Assembly: GCA_038153405.1 (NCBI GenBank)
Contig: JAYOYH010000044.1
Coordinates: 1 to 40,057, forward strand
Length of the DNA: 40,057 bases
Direction of reading: 5' to 3'
Source of the DNA: Gemmatimonadota bacterium
GTDB lineage: Bacteria; Latescibacterota; UBA2968; UBA8231
Part shown: positions 4,633 through 39,906 of the stretch, one piece after another
Layout of the letters: every line of letters starts with the position of its first letter
Numbering within the stretch: position 1 is the first letter of the stretch
Program-made: the position numbers and the translations under genes
The notes under the pieces: generated by a model
The model's input: only the letters and a program-made list of their open reading frames with translations
What the model was told of the DNA's origin: nothing
Database searches by the model: none

Positions 4633-5727
4633 TCAGGGCATCCAGCGCGTGGCGGCTATGTAGCGCTCGCCGTCGGGTGCGTCGTTGTAGTAGTAGGCGC
4701 TGAGCAGATGGCCGTCGGGCAGGACCGCGGTGCGCGGATAGCCCAGGTCGCGGCAGCCGCCGTCGGCGCGCAGAACGATTTCTGCGCCCCAGTGCAGGCC
4801 GCCATCGTTGCTGATGCGCGCCCGGATGCCGTAGGGCTGTGCGCGAAAGCCGTAGACCAGGGCAATGCGTCCATCCGCCAGTAGGGTGAGGGTGGGTGGG
4901 TTGCCCCCCGTGCCGGTTGGGCCGACGGGTTGGCCCTGGCCGCGCCAACTCTGGCCGTCGTCGTCGGAACAGTAGAAGTCGATCCAATTGCCCTCGTCTC
5001 CACTCTGGCGCGAGCCCGTGCGCAGGCGTTGCGCCACGAGGATGCGGCCCGATGGCAGGCGCAGACTGGCCGGCATAATGGCAAACCCCTCGGGTTCTGC
5101 GCCAATAAAGGAGAGAAATTCAAAATGCCTGCCGCCGTCGGTGCTGCGCGCGCAAAAGACGCGTCCCTCCCTGCCGTTGCGCTTGGTTGCCGTGAGAAAG
5201 AGGGTGCAAGAAGTTGCATTGTCGACCAGATAGTCGGTGCGCGCCTCAACGCCCTTTTGTCCGTAGTCGGGCAGGGCAAAGGGGCCCCGCCAGCTGCGGC
5301 AGCGATCGAGGGAGTAGTAGAAAAACGAGCGCGTGCCCTCGCCCAGGCCAGAGCGCGCGCATAGGAGGGCAAAGTCGGGATGGGCGAAATCGATGCCGCC
5401 CGAGCAGGGCTGAGGGCCATCTGCACCGTCGAGAGCAGCAGCTACTTTTAGCGGTGGATTGACGTGTTCGTCAGCGGAGAAGCCGCGGCCTGCGGGCGTG
5501 CGCCCGGGAAAGGGTTCGACCTGCCAGCTGAGACCGCCATCTGTGCTGCGCGCCTGCATGGGTGCGAAGGGGCGATTGCGATCGGCGCTGTGAAAGCCGC
5601 TGTTGTCGCCGTCGTAAAATCCCAGCGCAAAGCTGACGACAACTTCTTCCCGCCACGACCAAATGCCGTAGTTGGCAGGCCAGCCGGCATAGCGGCCCGC
5701 TTCTCGGTATAGTTCGATGTGTTGCAT
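4633..5727 (-). CDS. Sialidase-like BNR/Asp-box beta-propeller protein
   Basis: Five Asp-boxes (STDGGLSW, SLDRCRSW, STDGGRHF, SDDDGQSW, SNDGGLHW) and C-terminal DLGYP; no signal peptide. Confidence 0.82.
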   Translation of the reverse strand: MQHIELYREAGRYAGWPANYGIWSWREEVVVSFALGFYDGDNSGFHSADRNRPFAPMQARSTDGGLSWQVEPFPGRTPAGRGFSADEHVNPPLKVAAALDGADGPQPCSGGIDFAHPDFALLCARSGLGEGTRSFFYYSLDRCRSWRGPFALPDYGQKGVEARTDYLVDNATSCTLFLTATKRNGREGRVFCARSTDGGRHFEFLSFIGAEPEGFAIMPASLRLPSGRILVAQRLRTGSRQSGDEGNWIDFYCSDDDGQSWRGQGQPVGPTGTGGNPPTLTLLADGRIALVYGFRAQPYGIRARISNDGGLHWGAEIVLRADGGCRDLGYPRTAVLPDGHLLSAYYYNDAPDGERYIAATRWMP

Positions 5728-5786
5728 AGGTGTCTTGCGGCGAGGGGCGGTGTGCGCGGAGGAATGGGCTCAGCGCGCGGCGGTAA

Positions 5787-6569
5787 TCACCTTCGCCACG
5801 CACCGTCTTTGAGCGCTGCGACGCCTTGTTTGAGCCCCTGCTGATAGATCCACAGATCACCCCAATAGGCGATGCAGCGGAATCCTTGGCGCATGCGCTC
5901 AACGCCCTCGTCTACGGAGGGAACCATAAATGCGGCCGTCTTGCCGTGGCGCTCGCAGGCGGCCACGACGCGCTCCAGTGCACCGAGAAACGTCGGGTGC
6001 TCAAACTGACCGGGAATACCGAGAAAGTTGCTCAGGTCAAATTGGCCGATCCACAGAATATCAATGCCGTCGATAGCGGCAATGCGCTCGACGTTTTCCA
6101 AGCCGGGTCGATTTTCAATCTGCGCAATGAGTACGACTTCGTCGTTGGCGCTGCGCATTTTCTGCAATACGTCGCCGCCGACATAGCCGTCGTGTGCTAT
6201 GTGAAAGGCCGCGCCGCGCTGGCCCAGCGGCGGGTATTTGGCCGACTGGACGATCACTTCGGCCTGCGCGGCATCGCTTACCATGGGTACCATAATGCCC
6301 ATGGCGCCCACGTCGAGGACGCGAGCGATAAAGTGGTACTGGGTAGCCGGTACGCGCACAAACGGAACGATCGGCGCACCGTCGCCGCTGGCAATCAGGT
6401 TGCGCACCGTTTCAATACTCCAGCCCGTGTGCTCCATGTCGTAGATGATGAAGTCGGCACCGGCATTAGCGGCTAGGCGGGCCAGTCCGGGCGTGCAAAA
6501 CTCAAAGGCCATGGTGCCGACGGACGTTTTGCCCTGTGCCAGCGCGCGCTTTACGGGGTTGCTCTTCAT
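5787..6569 (-). CDS. HpcH/HpaI aldolase family protein (2-keto-3-deoxy sugar-acid aldolase-like)
   Basis: Motifs DFIIYDMEH, PFVRVP, LDVGAMGIMVPMV, KYPPLGQRG, AQIE, IGQFDLS. Start MKSNP overlaps the upstream stop (ATGA). Confidence 0.9.
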   Translation of the reverse strand: MKSNPVKRALAQGKTSVGTMAFEFCTPGLARLAANAGADFIIYDMEHTGWSIETVRNLIASGDGAPIVPFVRVPATQYHFIARVLDVGAMGIMVPMVSDAAQAEVIVQSAKYPPLGQRGAAFHIAHDGYVGGDVLQKMRSANDEVVLIAQIENRPGLENVERIAAIDGIDILWIGQFDLSNFLGIPGQFEHPTFLGALERVVAACERHGKTAAFMVPSVDEGVERMRQGFRCIAYWGDLWIYQQGLKQGVAALKDGAWRR

Positions 6570-7633
6570 GAGTCGGGTCTTTCGCTGCGGGGTTGGGCGC
6601 GCTCGGCGTAGACGCGCAGTTTTTCGCGCATGCGCGGATGGCGCGCCGCCTCCGGATTGACGATGAATTCGGGCAGGCGCCCGGCGGCCAGGCGGCAGAT
6701 GGCGGCCACGGCGTTGCGACCAATGCCGGCAAAGCACTCGTCGGTCCAAGCCAGGCCGTGCGGCGAGACGATGATATTGTCGAGCTCGAGCAGCGGATCG
6801 TCTGGGTCTATGGGTTCCTTTTCAAAAACGTCGAGACCGGCACCGGCGATGCGCCCGTCCTGCAGGGCCTGCGTGAGGGCCTGCTGATCGACGATGGGTC
6901 CGCGCGCTACGTTGATTAAGTACGCGCTCTCCTTCATAAGCGACAGGGCCTCTTCGTCGATTAGGTGGTGGGTGCGCTCGTTGAGCGCACAGCAGACGAC
7001 GACGAAGTCGGACATGCGCAGCAGCGTGCCGAGGTCGACCAGTTCGGCTCCGGCCTGCTGGGCGTGGTAGGTGCTGCTCTGCGGGTCGCTGGCCAGCACG
7101 CGCACGCCAAAAGGATGGAGCAGCCCGCAGAGCTCGCGACCGATATTGCCCAGACCGATGAGGCCAACGGCGCGGTCGGTCAGGCCTACGCCCATGTGAT
7201 CCATGCGATCGTTCCAGCGGCCCTCGCGCACCAGCGAATCCTTGATCAGCATTTTTTGGCTAAGCGCTAGCATATAGGTCAGCGCCGCCACGGCCACCGG
7301 TCGGCGCACGCCGTTGGGCGTGATCGTCACGATGATGCCGTTCCGCGTGCACGCTTCTACGTCGACGTTGTCATAGCCCACGCCAAAGCGCGCGATAAGC
7401 GAGAGGCGCTCGCCGTCGGCGACGCTGTTGGTGTCGATCTGAGAACCCAGCAGCAGCAGGGCATCGTAGTCACAGAGTTGGTCGCCATAGATGGGCGAGC
7501 AGTCTTCGCTCAGAAACTCCCATTCGATGCCGGGCGTGCGGTCGAGGCGGTCGAGGCCGATATCGCCAAAGCTGATGGTGCCGTCGCTTTTGAGAAAATC
7601 GCGGGTCAGTGCTACGCGGAATGTGTTGGACAT
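6566..7633 (-). CDS. D-isomer-specific 2-hydroxyacid dehydrogenase (SerA-like)
   Basis: Motifs ARFGVGYDNVD, GLIGLGNIG, LINVARGPIVD, GLDVFEKEP, VSPH. Start MSNTF at 7633. Confidence 0.9.
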   Translation of the reverse strand: MSNTFRVALTRDFLKSDGTISFGDIGLDRLDRTPGIEWEFLSEDCSPIYGDQLCDYDALLLLGSQIDTNSVADGERLSLIARFGVGYDNVDVEACTRNGIIVTITPNGVRRPVAVAALTYMLALSQKMLIKDSLVREGRWNDRMDHMGVGLTDRAVGLIGLGNIGRELCGLLHPFGVRVLASDPQSSTYHAQQAGAELVDLGTLLRMSDFVVVCCALNERTHHLIDEEALSLMKESAYLINVARGPIVDQQALTQALQDGRIAGAGLDVFEKEPIDPDDPLLELDNIIVSPHGLAWTDECFAGIGRNAVAAICRLAAGRLPEFIVNPEAARHPRMREKLRVYAERAQPRSERPDS

Positions 7634-33380: not shown

Positions 33381-33962
33381 ATGTTTGATCGCCGTGTGCA
33401 GTACCCTAAAAAATGGATGCTTGGTGCCATCGCCTTAGCCGTAGCCCTGGCGGTTCCTGTTGGGGCCGAGCAAGGACACGGCGTGGGGTTTGTCGCCGGT
33501 TCGACGCACGGGATGGGCCTTTCCTATGCCCGCCAATACGCAAGCGGGATGGGATGGCAGGTGTCGGGCTTTCCCTATGTCTCACCCGATCGGCGCGAAC
33601 TCTTTGCCGGCGCGGCCCTGTTCAAGACGCTCAACGAGGGTAAGCGCGGGCGCGCTTTTGTTTCGATGGGTGTGAAAATTAACCACCACTACGATCGCTA
33701 CGAGCGCTGGGACTGCGGTGCACGGGTGGTCGAAGATCCGGCTAAAGATTCTTCCGCGTTCGAGGATCCCAAGTGGGATTGTGGCTATCAGACCACGGAA
33801 CGCAACGTGCTGGCGTTGGGTCCGGGCGTTGGCTTAGAAGTGCGCTTTTTAGATAATTTCGCGATGTATATGGACTTTCCTGCCGCCCTCTACGTCGATT
33901 CGGACGTCGATGGTCTCGCCGTCCGTCCGATACCCAACTTCGGACTATTCTACCGCTGGTAG
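33381..33962 (+). CDS. Hypothetical small outer-membrane beta-barrel protein
   Basis: Signal peptide, amphipathic strands (GVGFVAG, GPGVGLEVRF) and aromatic C-terminus FGLFYRW; GGAGG RBS. Confidence 0.6.
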   Translation: MFDRRVQYPKKWMLGAIALAVALAVPVGAEQGHGVGFVAGSTHGMGLSYARQYASGMGWQVSGFPYVSPDRRELFAGAALFKTLNEGKRGRAFVSMGVKINHHYDRYERWDCGARVVEDPAKDSSAFEDPKWDCGYQTTERNVLALGPGVGLEVRFLDNFAMYMDFPAALYVDSDVDGLAVRPIPNFGLFYRW

Positions 33963-33974
33963 ATCACTCCGCGC

Positions 33975-34952
33975 TCAATTGCCTCCCTTATTGACGGCTT
34001 CGATCATCGCGATGATATAGCCAAACTGGAAGGCCCAGGCCTGGCGCACGCGGCCAGACACGCCTTCGGGTGCCTGATCGTCTGGGTGTCCGGGGGCGTG
34101 GTCGGGCATCAGCATGTAGGGGTATTCGACGTCGCGCAGCACGCGCGCGATTTCGTACATATCGAGATCGCCCTCGTCGGGCCACACCTCTTGGAACTGG
34201 TGCAGGCCGCCGCGAATATTGCGATAGTGTATGTTGAATATTTTCTTGCGCTCGCCAAAGTAGCGTATGATTTCGTAGAGTTCTTTGCCCGGATCTTCGA
34301 GGCCTTCCGACGCTACGCCGCAGCAAAAGTTGAAGCCGTGGTTGGGGCTATCGACCAGCTCAGAAAAGCGCTTGAGACCGTCAAAAACGGGCCAATTCCA
34401 GCGCTCTACGCCGCGCAGCACCGGCGCCGGCGGGTCGTCGAGATGGCTGGCTAATTGCACGTTGTTGGCCTCGGCAACGGGAATGACGCGCTCAAGAAAA
34501 TAACCGGCGCGATCAAAGCTTTCGTCGCGGCTAACGACGCCGGCCTCGCTGAGCGTTTCGTTATCGTACTCTGCCATATCAAAGGTGCTGTAACTGCTGC
34601 CACCGCGGCCGGGCGTGCTCGGGGTGCGCTGGTGGGGCAGCACGCAGAAGTTGTAGTTGATGCCGCGTAGGCCCGCCTTGCCGACGGCTTCAATCACTCT
34701 GCAGTATTCTTCGATGTCGCGGTCGCGCTGGGGATCTTGCGCCAGCGTGATGCTGCGCGCCGGATCGTAGTGAATCATCTCTAGGCTGACGCCTTCGTCC
34801 GCAGCTTCTTGCCTGTGGCGAGCGAGCGTGTTGGCATCGTTGCCGTCAACCCGAGCGTCCATATGCGTGACGCCGTGGCGCATGAGAAACTGTAGCTCCA
34901 TTTTTGAGGTGCCGATGCCCTGAACGCCTACGTGCATTTTTTCGTTGGCCAT
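33975..34952 (-). CDS. uxuA: Mannonate dehydratase (UxuA) family protein
   Basis: Motifs YFLERVIPVAEANNVQLASHLDDPP, GFNFCCG, NIHYRN, EGDLDM, MPDHAP, AFQFGYI. Confidence 0.82.
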   Translation of the reverse strand: MANEKMHVGVQGIGTSKMELQFLMRHGVTHMDARVDGNDANTLARHRQEAADEGVSLEMIHYDPARSITLAQDPQRDRDIEEYCRVIEAVGKAGLRGINYNFCVLPHQRTPSTPGRGGSSYSTFDMAEYDNETLSEAGVVSRDESFDRAGYFLERVIPVAEANNVQLASHLDDPPAPVLRGVERWNWPVFDGLKRFSELVDSPNHGFNFCCGVASEGLEDPGKELYEIIRYFGERKKIFNIHYRNIRGGLHQFQEVWPDEGDLDMYEIARVLRDVEYPYMLMPDHAPGHPDDQAPEGVSGRVRQAWAFQFGYIIAMIEAVNKGGN

Positions 34953-35008
34953 ATTGCCTATCTCCTTCTATTGTATTTCTGCGCGTGCGCAGCGGAAGAG
35001 CCCTAATT

Positions 35009-35046
35009 ATTGAAATATATCAATTTCTGCTTATGTTGTGACAACA
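35009..35046. promoter_or_regulatory. Two palindromes in the AT-rich divergent promoter region between uxuA and the porin gene
   Basis: ATTGA-aatata-TCAAT (35009-35024) and TGTTGT-g-ACAACA (35034-35046). Confidence 0.4.
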
Positions 35047-35095
35047 ATGTTGACTTCTACACGGTGGGTTCCACAGCGCTTAAGGAAAGAAGACA

Positions 35096-36148
35096 ATGGC
35101 ATTTACCAGAGATGATAGTTGTAGAAGGATAGTATGGATTGCGCTGTTTTTAGGTGCACTCACTGCACCGGCAGCAGCGTTGGACGTGATGCTGGATAAG
35201 TGGTATGTAGGCGTGTTCTCTTACTTGAACGGCCAGGTGCTGTCTTCGGACAAGACGCACATAGGGATAGGCAAAGATGGCTTTTCGCTTGGGGAAACGT
35301 CGATTTTCACTCGGGGAAAACTCACGTCCAGAGTGTCTATGCTAAGTGAGCACACGCTGCAGTCACGCCACTACAGGGAGGATCAATTTAAGCTTGAGCG
35401 TTTGGTCGTTCGCTACGAGATAAGCGAACGCCACTGGGTTGAGTTTGGCAAGCTGCACACGCCGGTAAACTATTGGAACGACTGGTTTCATCACGGTCGC
35501 CTGTTCTTTCCCACCATTGATCGTCCCTTGTTCTTCAGCGACAAATTTTTTGCCATTCACGACATCGGTGCGCGCTTTAGCGGGGCGCTGGGCTCTGGCG
35601 CGTTGCAGTACGACGTGTTTGGTGGTTCCGGCAGGCATGCCGTGCCCAGCAGTGAGGATGGAGATCAGATATTTCCAGATGGGCTTCAGTCATTGAACAT
35701 CGCGCTGATCTACTCCTGGAAAAACTGGACGTTCCGCACGGCGACGTACTTGGATGGCATTCGAGACGCCAAGCCGCTCCTGCGTCTTCACACAGCGTCT
35801 GTCCACATGGAAGACGATCGCTTCCGCGGTTTACTCGAACTGGCAGCCAAGTTCTCCGAGGCAGAAGATAGCGCGCCTGAGGTGCGTAAAGTATCACTGT
35901 ATCAATATGTAGGCTACAAGCTGAGCGAGAGTATGATGCCGTACGTTGGCCTCGATGCTCTTTCTGCAAATAGAGCGCAAGCGGATGAAGAAACCACTGC
36001 CGTTGTGAAATCCATACTGGGGTTTGCATTTTCACCCGATGTGCGAACGACGCTAAAAACGCAGTTTGAACTACATAGGGATTCTACGACGAATCACGAA
36101 GAGGAATTTCACTCCGTTTTGGTCTTTCAGTTAGCTGTGGGGATGTAA
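35096..36148 (+). CDS. Porin-like outer-membrane beta-barrel protein
   Basis: Signal peptide (APAAA/L), FKLERLVVRY, FGKLHTPVNYWN..HHG...PTIDRP, and terminal strand VLVFQLAVGM. Confidence 0.7.
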   Translation: MAFTRDDSCRRIVWIALFLGALTAPAAALDVMLDKWYVGVFSYLNGQVLSSDKTHIGIGKDGFSLGETSIFTRGKLTSRVSMLSEHTLQSRHYREDQFKLERLVVRYEISERHWVEFGKLHTPVNYWNDWFHHGRLFFPTIDRPLFFSDKFFAIHDIGARFSGALGSGALQYDVFGGSGRHAVPSSEDGDQIFPDGLQSLNIALIYSWKNWTFRTATYLDGIRDAKPLLRLHTASVHMEDDRFRGLLELAAKFSEAEDSAPEVRKVSLYQYVGYKLSESMMPYVGLDALSANRAQADEETTAVVKSILGFAFSPDVRTTLKTQFELHRDSTTNHEEEFHSVLVFQLAVGM

Positions 36149-36149
36149 A

Positions 36150-36623
36150 ATGTTGAGCTACTACAGAACGAGTGGAATTGCATTTGTCATGGCCCTGGGT
36201 GCTATTGTCTTCTCCATGCCCGGTGAAGTCCTCGGCGAGGACAGTGCACAGCAGAAGCAAGTCCTTGTTGCCAATGTCGATCCTAGTCTGCTACCGGATT
36301 CGGTTAAAGTGGCGGATATTGTGCGCGGCGGCAAGCGCAGTTGGTCGGACGGGACTATACTGACGGTAGTGCTACCCGGCCGCAAGCATCCTTTTTTCAA
36401 ACAGACAGAAAAAGATTTCTTTGTGGGCAAGGGGCCATCGCTGCAGCGACACTGGGTTCGCCTTGTATTTAGCGGCCGTGGTAATCCTCCCTTATATGCG
36501 GAGAACCCCGAAGAAATGTGCGAGATGGTCAGGGTGACGCGTGGTTCGTTCGCACTCTTTTACGGACCGGTGCCGGATCCATGTCAGTCTCTTGCGCGGT
36601 CGCCTCTTCCGGTCGCGCCTTGA
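36150..36623 (+). CDS. Small exported single-lobe periplasmic-binding-like protein
   Basis: Signal peptide, then VLVAN..IVRGGKRSWSDG..VVLP..HWVRLVFSGRGNPP..EMVRVTRGSFALF. This resembles the short proteins usually auto-annotated as 'phosphate ABC substrate-binding'. Confidence 0.65.
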   Translation: MLSYYRTSGIAFVMALGAIVFSMPGEVLGEDSAQQKQVLVANVDPSLLPDSVKVADIVRGGKRSWSDGTILTVVLPGRKHPFFKQTEKDFFVGKGPSLQRHWVRLVFSGRGNPPLYAENPEEMCEMVRVTRGSFALFYGPVPDPCQSLARSPLPVAP

Positions 36624-36648
36624 TCTGCTACATATAGCACGGGCAATA

Positions 36649-38529
36649 ATGGGTTCCTCTTCGCTGTTATTAAAGCTGGTTGTGCCCTACGGCATAGCCC
36701 TGTTCGCGATTGCGTTCACGCTTCTATATGCAGTACCCGAGCAGCAGAAGGCATCTTTTTTCGAAGACGTAATGGGTGAGTTGCGCTCCATTAGTCTGAC
36801 GGCGGCAAATAGCGTCGAAATCGCCATAGAAAAAGAAGATTTCTCGTCTCTTTCGATGATAAATCGTCTTTTGGAATCGCATCCCAACGTCAGCTTTGCC
36901 GCCATATACGTCGATGAAGATGGCGTTAGCGAACGATTTTCCATTTATCCGAGCCACCTAGCCGACGATCCCACCTTCACAGCAGATCCCGAACGCTATC
37001 TGATGCACGACCATCCCATTGAAACGACGCTGTTTAGTGGGCGCGTCGTGGTGGGCTATGATGAGACCTTGTTCGAGTCACAGACACGGCAGCTGAATAG
37101 GCCGATCTATATGGCCTTTGCGTTTGTTTTGTTGGTCCAGTTCTGGAGCTATCGAACGATCTCTCGGTCTGTGGTTCAGCCCATTCGCCAGGCAGCAGCG
37201 GCGGCCGATTCTATGAGAGCCGGCGGGCTAGAGGCATCGCTGCATCTGGCTCCTCGAGAAGACGAAATTGGCCAGTTGCACAATTCGCTACAGAACCTGC
37301 AGCGCAGCCTGCTGGATCAGCAGGGTCGAAACGATGAGCTGATGGCCTCGCTAGAGGAGCGCGTTAGAGAGCGGACGGCCAAACTGCAAGAGGCGCTGTC
37401 GACAAAAGACAACTTTCTTTCATCCGTTAGTCACGAACTGCGCACGCCACTGCATAGTATTATTTCTTCGCTCGAACTGCAGCTGCAGACCGCTGACGAG
37501 ATGAATATGTCGGCTCATTCGCTTGAAGTTGTGGAAAATGGCCTAGTTGCTGCCCGGTCGCTGTTGACGCTAATAAACGATTTGTTGGACTACCAAAAGT
37601 TTGCTAGTCAAGGTGTTGAGCTGCGCCCTGAAGCCACCAATATGATCGAGCTATTACAGCGCCTTAAACGTGTGGTGAAACCGCTTTTTCATTCCGGTAA
37701 AGTTCGCTTGCGCATTGAGTATGCCGAGTGCGAGGGACTGTGGGTCAGCGTCGATCCGCAGCGTTTAGAGCAGGTACTCGTCAATCTGATAGGCAATGCC
37801 AGCAAATTTACGCACGAAGGGGAAGTTGCGCTGACGGTGCGAGCAGAGGTCGTTGACGACCACGCGCGCTGCACTTTTTCCATTGCCGATACGGGGATAG
37901 GCATGGATAGGGACACGATCCACCGGCTTGGCGAGCCCTTTTTCCAGGGCACAGAAGGCTATAGCCGCACGTTTGGCGGCACCGGGTTGGGGCTCAGCAT
38001 TGTAAAACGCCTGTTGGAATCTATGGAATCGCGCCTTGAGATAGACAGTGTTTCTGGCGAAGGCAGCACGTTCTCGTTTGCGCTGGAGCTGCCGGTGGCT
38101 GAATTGGGGGTTGCGGTATCCGATGAAGCGCCGCTGGAAATGGCTCTAACAGAGCGGCTGCGCGTATTGTACGTCGAGGATATGGAGATAAATCAGTTTT
38201 TCATGCGGGCTATGGCCAAACAGTTGAACGTAGATCTCGCACTGGCAAGCAGTGCGCTAGACGGCTATGAGCACATAAAGAACGAGGCGTTTGACTTGGT
38301 GCTGACCGACATTCAAATGCCCGAGCACGATGGCACCGAACTGATTAGATGGGTGCGAGAGAACCCCGACATATCACCCAATCTTCAGGTCATTGCCTTT
38401 ACGGCACATGCCGAGTACGAGCGCGTGGAACAGTTTCTGTCTATGGGTTTTAATAGCGTGCTGACCAAGCCCATGCGCATCAAAGAGCTGCGGCAAGCCC
38501 TCGAACGCGTGCAGCAGCAAAAAGCCTAA
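36649..38529 (+). CDS. Hybrid sensor histidine kinase (TM-periplasmic-TM-HAMP-HisKA-HATPase-REC)
   Basis: Motifs REDEIGQL (HAMP), VSHELRTPL, NLIGNASKFT, DTGIGM, GTGLGL; receiver VED, LTDIQMP, TAH, LTKP. Start MGSSS at 36649. Confidence 0.93.
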   Translation: MGSSSLLLKLVVPYGIALFAIAFTLLYAVPEQQKASFFEDVMGELRSISLTAANSVEIAIEKEDFSSLSMINRLLESHPNVSFAAIYVDEDGVSERFSIYPSHLADDPTFTADPERYLMHDHPIETTLFSGRVVVGYDETLFESQTRQLNRPIYMAFAFVLLVQFWSYRTISRSVVQPIRQAAAAADSMRAGGLEASLHLAPREDEIGQLHNSLQNLQRSLLDQQGRNDELMASLEERVRERTAKLQEALSTKDNFLSSVSHELRTPLHSIISSLELQLQTADEMNMSAHSLEVVENGLVAARSLLTLINDLLDYQKFASQGVELRPEATNMIELLQRLKRVVKPLFHSGKVRLRIEYAECEGLWVSVDPQRLEQVLVNLIGNASKFTHEGEVALTVRAEVVDDHARCTFSIADTGIGMDRDTIHRLGEPFFQGTEGYSRTFGGTGLGLSIVKRLLESMESRLEIDSVSGEGSTFSFALELPVAELGVAVSDEAPLEMALTERLRVLYVEDMEINQFFMRAMAKQLNVDLALASSALDGYEHIKNEAFDLVLTDIQMPEHDGTELIRWVRENPDISPNLQVIAFTAHAEYERVEQFLSMGFNSVLTKPMRIKELRQALERVQQQKA

Positions 38530-38760
38530 CGTCTGGCGTAGCCGCTGACTGCAAGCATGCATTCCCACATATATCCGTTTACATGGCTCGTGCGCGCGCT
38601 AGGTGCACGAGCACATCGTGCCGCAAAACGCAGATGACATGCAGCAGCCATTTCTGCTGCACGCACCGTCGCGTATATTTGCCCTCCTGCGAAATCGCAT
38701 ACATACGAGGGAACGGTGGCGATGGTTTCGGACGGAGAAGGTGAGTGCGATACGCGCGCC

Positions 38761-39906
38761 ATGGAGCGCCTGCCCAAGGCGTTTTACGCGCTCTACTACG
38801 GAGCCGGCGCGTGCCTATTTCCCTTTGTGCCACTCTACTACGACCAGATTGGTCTCAACGGCGACCAGATTGGTCTGCTGGCCGGCATCCCGTCGGCGAT
38901 GGTGCTGATCGGCGGCGCGCTGTGGGGCGGTTTGGCCGATGCGACGGGGCGGCACAGGGCCGTCTTGCTGCTGGCCATTGTAGGGTCGATTGGTCTATCG
39001 CAGCTGCTCCCGTCGCTGAGCGCTTTTCTCTGGTTGATTCCCCTGGTCTTTGCCATGGCCTTTTTCATGTCGCCCATCGTGCCGCTGGTCGATCACTCGG
39101 TGTTGGAGATGCTCGGCGCTCAGCGCGCGCGCTATGGCAAGGTTCGCATGTGGGGTGCGGTGGGCTGGGGTGTGGCTGGCCCGTTCATCGGTTGGATTGT
39201 CGAGCGCTCTAACCTGGACTGGGCATTCCGTAGCTATGGTTTGCTCATGGGCTTATGTCTGGTCGTTATTGCCTATTTACCCGTGCGTGCGGCCTCGCTG
39301 CACGGGCCCTTCCGCGGTGGTATAAAACAGCTCCTGAGGGATCGCCGCTGGCATCTGTTTCTGTTCTTGGCCTTTATCGGCGGCGTTGGTTTGGGCTTTG
39401 CCCACCACTACCTATTCCTCTATATGGATGGCTTGGGAGCATCGCGTGCTATGATGGGTTGGGCGCTGAGCATGGCAACCCTGAGCGAGTTAGTGGCATT
39501 TGCGCTGGCCGAGCGTGCCATGCGGCGCTGGGGAGCGCGCACGCTCTTTTTGGCGGCTCTGTTGGCCTCGGCGCTGCGCCTACTAGCCTATTCGCTGGCG
39601 ACCGAGCCGTGGCATGCGCTGTGTGCGCAACTGCTGCACGGTCCTTCTTTTGCTCTGATGTGGATGGCCGGTGTTTCGTGGGCCAACCGCATCGCACCAC
39701 CCGGTGCAGGGGCGACGGCGCAGAGCCTGTTTGGCGGTGTAAACTTTGGGCTGGGCGGCACGGCAGCAGCGCTGGCCGGTGGCGCTCTGCTCGAGCGCGT
39801 GGGAGCGGCCGCTATGTATGAGTGGGGTGCCCTGAGCGTATTGGTGGGTCTGGTTGCATGCGTATTGGCCGAGCGCGCGGTAGGAATAGACCAGGAAGCA
39901 GAATAA
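38761..39906 (+). CDS. MFS transporter (MFS_1_like)
   Basis: Motifs QIGLL, WGGLAD, YGKVRMWGAVGWG, QLLHGPSF, ATAQSLF; about 12 hydrophobic segments. Start MERLP at 38761. Confidence 0.9.
   Translation: MERLPKAFYALYYGAGACLFPFVPLYYDQIGLNGDQIGLLAGIPSAMVLIGGALWGGLADATGRHRAVLLLAIVGSIGLSQLLPSLSAFLWLIPLVFAMAFFMSPIVPLVDHSVLEMLGAQRARYGKVRMWGAVGWGVAGPFIGWIVERSNLDWAFRSYGLLMGLCLVVIAYLPVRAASLHGPFRGGIKQLLRDRRWHLFLFLAFIGGVGLGFAHHYLFLYMDGLGASRAMMGWALSMATLSELVAFALAERAMRRWGARTLFLAALLASALRLLAYSLATEPWHALCAQLLHGPSFALMWMAGVSWANRIAPPGAGATAQSLFGGVNFGLGGTAAALAGGALLERVGAAAMYEWGALSVLVGLVACVLAERAVGIDQEAE

Follow-up and report, generated by a model that had tools for sequence, protein, structure and literature searches.

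A recurring gene cassette of a porin-like protein, a single-lobe PstS-type protein and a membrane sensor as a candidate envelope-sensing system in Latescibacterota

Contig JAYOYH010000044.1 of assembly GCA_038153405.1, from a bacterium filed under Gemmatimonadota and placed by GTDB in the Latescibacterota, was analyzed over 40,057 nucleotides (nt), referred to here as the window. On its plus strand lie three consecutive genes that encode a porin-like outer-membrane protein, a small secreted protein and a hybrid histidine kinase (Table 1). The arrangement recurs in divergent loci, where the porin-like protein and the small protein form the constant unit and most copies are read by a receptor with a HAMP domain. 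The genes are separated by gaps of 1 nt and 25 nt, as had been stated in a preliminary description of the window, made from the letters alone, in which the triad was proposed to be a trans-envelope signaling cassette. These gaps follow from the start assigned to the third gene: its open reading frame (ORF) is open from 36541 (36541-38529, plus strand), but the ATG at 36649 was taken as the start because it aligns with the first methionine of 17 homologues, which gives a protein of 626 amino acids (aa) encoded by 36649-38529. The list of ORFs agrees with this layout. Each of the three proteins has one N-terminal hydrophobic stretch, spanning residues 11-33 in the porin-like protein, 7-29 in the small protein and 3-30 in the kinase.

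The kinase is the most readily recognized of the three. Its HAMP, HisKA, HATPase_c and REC domains all score above the Pfam cut-offs and identify it as a hybrid histidine kinase, in agreement with the HAMP and REC domains read at first sight; no Hpt domain was detected in it with Pfam. A periplasmic domain had also been predicted at about 100 aa, and the domain is there, but the distance from the first transmembrane segment (TM1) to the hydrophobic segment before HAMP is nearer to 120 aa. The first 170 residues of the protein have no Pfam match, a search of PDB sequences with the sensor region returned HAMP only, and a word search with residues 1-170 found only close relatives, of 65-100% identity. 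Judged by these searches, the periplasmic domain belongs to an undescribed family.

Table 1. Features of the three-gene cassette, in window coordinates
Feature	Position	Strand	Basis
Porin-like outer-membrane protein, 350 aa	35096..36148	+	Signal peptide, residues 1-29 (...PAAA/LD); weak family matches of relatives
Most conserved barrel segment, residues 118-145, GKLHTPVNYWNDWFHHGRLFFPTIDRPL	35447..35530	+	42-sequence alignment
Secreted single-lobe (lobe II) PstS-like protein (half-PBP), 157 aa	36150..36623	+	AF2 model, VIA-align, Foldseek, hhalign
Family-specific motif, residues 98-114, LQRHWVRLVFSGRGNPP	36441..36491	+	109-sequence alignment
Kinase N-terminus: TM1, periplasmic domain of about 120 aa, TM2	36649..37158	+	No Pfam or PDB match before HAMP
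HAMP, residues 171-222	37159..37314	+	PF00672, 32.2 bits (cut-off 25)
HisKA (253-318) and HATPase_c (369-481)	37405..38091	+	PF00512, 47.8 bits; PF02518, 92.9 bits
C-terminal REC, residues 506-618	38164..38502	+	PF00072, 80.2 bits

The small protein, referred to here as the half-PBP (half periplasmic binding protein), carries a signal peptide and no lipobox cysteine, and on this basis is expected to be periplasmic and soluble. It has no match to any Pfam or NCBIfam model at E<=1, PstS models included, and a word search recovered only 10 close relatives. An exhaustive profile search with a threshold of E<=0.001 yielded 286 representative relatives; almost all of the best 150 measure 140-160 aa, so that the half size is native and not the result of truncation. 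The family has no model of its own in NCBIfam, and named relatives are annotated as 'hypothetical' or 'PBP domain-containing'. Kinship to binding proteins emerges from the family as a whole: among 109 members, 40 match PF12849 (PBP_like_2) at E<=0.01, each over the middle of the model, and when the family profile was compared with PDB sequences, 22 of 23 rows were phosphate- or solute-binding proteins, nearly all of the PstS type.

Structural comparison located this kinship within the PstS fold. An AlphaFold2 (AF2) model built on the 109-sequence alignment had a predicted local distance difference test score (pLDDT) of 86.5; an earlier model from 10 close sequences was poor (pLDDT 58.7) and was discarded. 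The best Foldseek rows for the model were PstS proteins (probability 0.9-0.99, E about 0.02), and the top 12 structures in an all-against-representatives comparison with VIA-align were of the PstS type (Z 9.4-12.0, root-mean-square deviation 2.4-3.5 Å over 105-120 residues). Residues 33-157 of the model fall on middle segments of these chains, for example on 82-217 of 253 or 102-234 of 249 residues, and the middle segment of a type II binding-protein chain is lobe II. Similarly, hhalign comparison with six full-length PstS-like proteins from related genomes placed residues 34-141 on PstS residues 85-190 of 250 (probability 64.6, E 6e-5). The suggestion that the small protein is about half of a normal binding protein was thus accurate and can be sharpened: of a PstS-type binding protein, the modeled protein represents only lobe II.

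The anion site of PstS has not survived in this lobe. The residues R139, S143, G144 and T145 of the R..SGT signature are invariant in the six full-length proteins, and opposite them the half-PBP has P, H, P and F; the signature faces P-G-R-K-H-P-F in the window protein, and none of its residues is kept in the column consensus of the 109 relatives. The two-lobe build of PstS, with a hinge and about 250-350 aa, is absent from this protein of 157 aa and one lobe. Homology to one PstS lobe is therefore supported, while the protein does not qualify as a PstS. The family has acquired a motif of its own at residues 98-114, left unaligned by hhalign and without a PstS counterpart, in which W102 and P114 are invariant in 109 sequences and G109 and F107 are conserved at 99% and 94%. 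These four residues probably mark a protein-protein interface. The half-PBP is, in short, a single lobe without the ligand site and with a new conserved surface, and since one lobe cannot close on a ligand in the manner of a Venus flytrap, a partner protein would have to contribute to any such site. That such a domain can serve as a sensor module is suggested by the 744-aa relative P0210, in which a half-PBP domain (about residues 488-601, PBP_like_2 E 1.7e-4) is fused extracytoplasmically to the end of a BlaR1-type M56 transducer (PF05569, E 8.9e-30).

As a separate observation on PstS, the source genome (93% complete) has no PF12849 match at E<=0.01, whereas 26 of the 41 genomes searched in its family (the source genome being counted in the 41) have one. 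Its canonical PstS is either encoded in DNA missing from the assembly or replaced by another binding-protein family.

The first gene of the triad was harder to place. Its signal peptide, already noted in the preliminary description, is clear, and the beta-barrel that had been read alongside it is reached indirectly, through weak matches of relatives and through language-model neighbors. The window protein itself has no Pfam match, OmpA-family models included, its best NCBIfam match, to the ExtI porin (E 0.0056, 15.5 bits), is well below the cut-off of 150, and its family profile found no PDB sequence at E<=10. Among its family, which comprises 84 homologues of similar length, relatives match OMP_b-brl (5 of 42), Porin_4, Porin_O_P and BBP2 weakly (E 1e-4 to 1e-7). 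In distant loci the gene upstream of the small one is still recognized by the family profile and matches Porin_4, Porin_O_P or BBP2; Porin_4 scores of barrels that fit the profile or of other upstream porin-like genes were 29, 32.6 and 40.7 bits (cut-off 27). The nearest neighbors in the ESM language model are likewise Porin_O_P, BBP2 and Porin_4 clusters, at a similarity of 0.97-0.98. The C-terminal residue is phenylalanine in 27 of 42 family members and methionine in the window protein. 'Porin' is accordingly used here as a well-supported label, for a barrel fold that is predicted from kinship. One segment stands out in the alignment of 42 sequences (26-61% identity): residues 118-145, about one third along the protein, polar and rich in His, Arg, Asp and Trp, have a mean column conservation of 0.90-0.92 compared with 0.3-0.6 elsewhere, in an alignment that otherwise averages 38%. 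This segment may be a constriction loop or a partner-binding segment.

With both proteins placed near phosphate families, an ordinary phosphate system has to be weighed, in which a PstS-like protein and an OprP/OprO-like porin would act in canonical uptake or sensing. OprP/OprO porins work with PstS in phosphate uptake, and the triad joins members of the same two superfamilies, its barrel resembling Porin_O_P and its periplasmic protein PstS; the nearest characterized folds and families of the two partners, PstS and Porin_O_P, do belong to phosphate uptake. PstS is also known to signal to the chemoreceptor CtpL (PMC8050422). Unlike that pair, however, the barrels have weak family matches (none for the window protein), the PstS-like protein is reduced to one lobe with R..SGT replaced, and a sensor stands where PstCAB would be expected, with no PstCAB adjacent. 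Furthermore, the window half-PBP misses all Pfam and NCBIfam PstS models, and TIGR02136 is matched by only 4 of its 109 relatives. Taken together, these observations make an ordinary phosphate system very improbable.

Recurrence was assessed in two sets of loci. The narrower set comprises 32 loci besides the window, from 3 genomes of the same genus, 6 further genomes of the phylum and 23 metagenome contigs, the metagenome scan having been confined to relatives in which one peptide pattern is preserved. Directly 5' of the small gene, all 30 loci with upstream DNA encode a barrel of the same family (L025 and L027 start inside the small gene), and a signaling protein lies directly 3' in all 29 loci with downstream DNA (L021, L024 and L035 end too early). 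The small-gene stop often overlaps or abuts the start of the sensor. In 28 of the 29 downstream proteins the N-terminal sensor region is of the window type, the exception being a 4HB_MCP-HAMP-kinase at L019. What follows the sensor region varies among the loci in which it can be read: HAMP-HisKA-HATPase-REC at L017, L022, L027 and L034, the same type without a HAMP match at E<=0.001 at L037 and L041 and in split form at L018 and L025, HAMP-PAS-kinase-REC at L014 and L015, and a GGDEF-EAL output at L026, whose sensor region matches window residues 5-163 (E 4.5e-20). At L030 (4494-5189) the sensor domain stands alone, with no output. Because the recurring loci encode proteins only 19-39% identical to those of the window, the arrangement cannot be put down to chance. 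When loci are compared two by two, the identities of the three parts are also correlated (r 0.91-0.96 over 152 locus pairs), which at the level of sequence indicates that the parts are inherited together, not that they bind.

The kinase gene of L018 is split in two (6262-6882 with 4779-6284). At L086, in another genome of the genus to which L018 belongs, the kinase is intact, at 691 aa, and has the same domain set.

For the broader set, a profile of the 109 half-PBP sequences was run against 168 genomes of the phylum, of which 21 contain the half-PBP in up to four copies each, and 27 further places were scanned. The upstream gene is porin-like in 19 of 26 places, of which 15 were recognized with the family profile and the other 4 through Pfam alone. 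One locus, L090, encodes a methyl-accepting chemotaxis protein (MCP) with a window-type sensor, divergent from the barrel. The same sensor region is thus found on HAMP-kinase-REC, PAS-kinase, GGDEF-EAL and MCP proteins, and different outputs would be driven from it. The cassette occurs in Gemmatimonadota and in marine Gammaproteobacteria, for example Aequoribacter. Homologues thus keep company with the barrel and with interchangeable outputs, which the preliminary description had named as support for its proposal; these outputs are hybrid kinases and PAS-kinases, besides a single GGDEF-EAL protein and a single MCP.

Transport, by comparison, is not what these genes adjoin. No ATP-binding cassette (ABC) permease or ATPase adjoins the triad in the flanks of the window, as had been observed from the letters, and no ABC permease, and likewise no PstC, PstA or PstB, was found beside any scanned locus. 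The single ABC ATPase seen, at L004, is a two-cassette gene on the opposite strand without a permease, presumably of the ABC-F type. At L014 an unrelated TRAP transporter lies upstream.

Receptors that depend on a binding protein are well established (PMC8050422, PMC9602780), and include LuxP-LuxQ, TorT-TorS, NspS-MbaA, PstS-CtpL and GltB-GtrS (PMC8050422, PMC7927077). As in systems of the LuxPQ/TorTS type, the gene of a secreted protein with a binding-protein fold here adjoins that of a membrane receptor with a periplasmic domain, and the outputs of the known receptors are also kinases, GGDEF-EAL proteins and chemoreceptors, with PstS-CtpL drawing on the same PBP_like_2 family. The partners of those receptors, however, have two full lobes, which close around a ligand, and the majority serve a transporter as well, whereas the cassette has lobe II only, has lost the PstS ligand residues, lacks an adjacent transporter and begins with a dedicated porin gene. 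In a 2021 review of such receptors (PMC8050422), 'porin', 'outer membrane', 'single domain' and 'YfiR' have 0 occurrences each. Among papers outside subscription-only journals, no publication was found on a porin/half-binding-protein/sensor cassette, and none joining 'single lobe', 'periplasmic binding protein' and 'histidine kinase', in keeping with the earlier statement that no characterized example was known.

The absence of a second lobe invites a further possibility, a 'split flytrap', in which the lone lobe would form a ligand site jointly with the receptor domain or with the mouth of the porin, and the loci would represent a widespread, undescribed three-layer class of sensors. As a whole this is a speculative and rather unlikely reading. 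The part of it that has one porin/half-protein front end plugged into kinases, cyclic di-GMP enzymes and chemoreceptors is put forward with the same reserve.

The closest precedent for a single lobe in signaling lies elsewhere. YfiR has a single-lobe binding-protein fold and regulates a HAMP protein (PMC4655355), and the YfiB-YfiR-YfiN (TpbB) system of Pseudomonas aeruginosa, to which the triad had been compared at the outset, resembles it in spanning three envelope layers, with a small secreted single-lobe protein in the middle and a periplasmic domain plus HAMP in the inner membrane. This likeness of logic holds; a family relationship does not. YfiR resembles a type I lobe and belongs to the DUF4154 family, and the half-PBP is a type II PstS lobe; DUF4154 has no match in the window half-PBP at E<=1 nor in 109 relatives at E<=0.01. 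YfiR is missing from the 50 rows of the VIA-align comparison and from those of Foldseek, although the folds may still be similar. YfiB is an OmpA/Pal-like lipoprotein and YfiN has a GGDEF output, while the cassette has a porin-like barrel, and no sequence relationship was found between the two systems. YfiR is thus the nearest precedent for a single-lobe regulator, from another family and with another type of outer-membrane partner. A second likeness is to RcsF/OmpA-C-F/IgaA/RcsC-D, in which a small envelope protein is tied to outer-membrane barrels and signals through a phosphorelay with a hybrid kinase (PMC9907809), although the Rcs genes do not form one cassette and have no homology to the triad, and the half-PBP has no lipobox.

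These precedents suggest an alternative in which the barrel would hold the half-PBP as an inhibitor or activator, envelope damage or a change in the state of the barrel would release or capture it, and the state of the envelope, rather than a solute, would be the signal. Several observations could be accommodated in this way: the pairing of barrel and small protein is the most constant feature of the loci (30/30 and 19/26), and the half-PBP has lost the PstS ligand site and kept an invariant motif of a surface type; YfiR, moreover, is a single-lobe fold sequestered by its outer-membrane partner (PMC4655355), and RcsF/outer-membrane-protein complexes signal to a hybrid-kinase phosphorelay (PMC9907809). 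The conserved polar segment of the barrel, however, would suit a specific channel no less than a docking site, and the relatives of the barrel are porin families, unlike the OmpA/Pal-like lipoprotein YfiB. RcsF is a lipoprotein, unlike the half-PBP, which has no lipobox, and the interaction here is putative. Sequestration in either form, whether of an inhibitor or of an activator freed by damage, is on balance unlikely.

The reading preferred here, to which a probability of roughly one half is given, is that the triad is one conserved envelope-sensing cassette, in which the half-PBP docks on the periplasmic domain of the receptor and signals the presence of a solute that has entered through the porin. 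The gene order, the half-PBP fold with loss of its site, the kinase domains and the recurrence across divergent lineages with different outputs are the demonstrated part; it is gene order that suggests a relay from barrel to small protein to kinase. In the proposed mechanism the porin-like protein would admit a solute across the outer membrane, and the half-PBP, as a periplasmic accessory co-sensor, would dock on the roughly 120-aa domain of the kinase, touch the porin, or both, with any ligand site shared between it and its partner. Binding would switch the HAMP domain and lead to autophosphorylation and transfer to REC, from which the phosphoryl group could pass to an Hpt protein or response regulator encoded elsewhere. 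From sequence, then, the cassette is real and conserved, and its mechanism is a proposal.

Several observations weigh against this sensing role. No ligand is indicated for the cassette, contact of the half-PBP with the sensor domain or the porin is putative, and no gene for a response regulator or Hpt protein adjoins the triad. The loci of the narrower set are not independent, many being near-copies, and the tree of the small protein has about 7 deep clades. In the broader set, the upstream gene is not recognizably porin-like in 7 of 26 places (in four it encodes an unknown protein about as long as the barrel, and in the others a transposase or an unknown protein of 552 or 243 aa), and a HAMP sensor kinase lies directly 3' in only 16 of 24 assessable places. 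Six of these 16 kinases have a window-type sensor, 3 have an unrecognized N-terminus with PAS, and 7 have 4HB_MCP or a fragment, so that pairing with one sensor fold is not obligatory. A further 6 of the 24 (L092, L095, L097, L101, L104 and L109) have no signaling gene within about 4.5 kb and adjoin short-chain dehydrogenase/reductase, lipocalin-like or metabolic genes, while of the remaining two one is the divergent MCP locus L090 and the other, L112, was left unassigned. An adjacent sensor is therefore not a requirement for the porin/half-protein pair, which may have a function of its own.

It is in these places that another explanation finds its footing, namely that porin and half-PBP are a self-contained pair, which might for example catch a solute, or keep it back, where the channel opens, and that the kinase is a mere co-transcribed or regulating neighbor. 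The 6 of 24 places without a sensor are what such a pair would look like on its own, and the sensors adjoining other pairs use at least two unrelated folds, the window type and 4HB_MCP. Against it, a sensor lies directly 3' in 29 of 29 and in 16 of 24 places, its start codon often overlapping the preceding stop codon, the window-type domain was found only beside such pairs (it was searched for there and among close relatives), and the three parts diverge in step. A self-contained pair is for these reasons doubtful, as is its corollary that the kinase uses its periplasmic domain to sense a different signal, and the sensing cassette is preferred.

For most bacterial sensor kinases the signal is unknown, and periplasmic accessory proteins have usually been found singly, by genetics. 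Here sequence alone reveals a front end, composed of a dedicated porin and a binding protein of naturally half size, beside receptors with several outputs. If the half-PBP binds those receptors, this would be a new use of the binding-protein fold in signaling, with a lobe acting as an adaptor between proteins or supplying one half of a joint ligand site, and it would offer a handle on the signal, as mutations can be made in the conserved polar segment of the porin and in the invariant Trp motif. Should the pair function in the absence of sensors, it would still be an uncharacterized duo of outer membrane and periplasm.

The triad is flanked by a UxuA-like gene, which lies on the minus strand, and by a gene for a major facilitator superfamily transporter. 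The guanine-plus-cytosine (GC) content of the triad, 52.8%, is about 10 points lower than the 62.4% of the remaining window. Relatives of the same genus, in which the triad is present in 4 of 8 genomes, have an equally lowered GC content at third codon positions and carry the genes at the same position beside the UxuA-like gene; a recent horizontal arrival of the triad in the source genome was rejected on this evidence. DNA nearly identical to window positions 34800-38800 (at least half of the sampled words) was found in 11 metagenome runs from 6 studies, of estuary, seawater, marine and ballast-water origin, two of which may be the source of the window DNA. In two metatranscriptome libraries of one study, contigs of 150-216 nt with at least 99% identity fall on the porin-like and kinase genes, none on the small gene and none across a junction; such libraries may contain DNA, and they are taken as neutral on expression and co-transcription.

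Some smaller observations concern individual genes. A 190-aa ORF at 33390-33962 on the plus strand, 1.1 kb 5' of the cassette and beyond the UxuA-like gene, has no Pfam match, a signal-peptide-like N-terminus and the composition of a small outer-membrane protein. Several relatives are decayed or rearranged, among them L030 and L018 described above. In the broader set, the kinase of L106 is split in two, the half-PBP gene of L111 is broken by a TGA codon, and a transposase occupies the barrel position at L107. Genes for methionine sulfoxide reductases (Msr) lie near the cassette in several loci, which could reflect a link to oxidative stress, or shared ancestry and coincidence: a SelR/MsrB gene is directly 5' of the barrel in three metagenome loci (L026:177-563, L031:4417-4803 and L033:2553-2969), and an MsrA-MsrB fusion (L019:4641-5723) is found 1.2 kb 3' of the cassette in a Gemmatimonadota genome.

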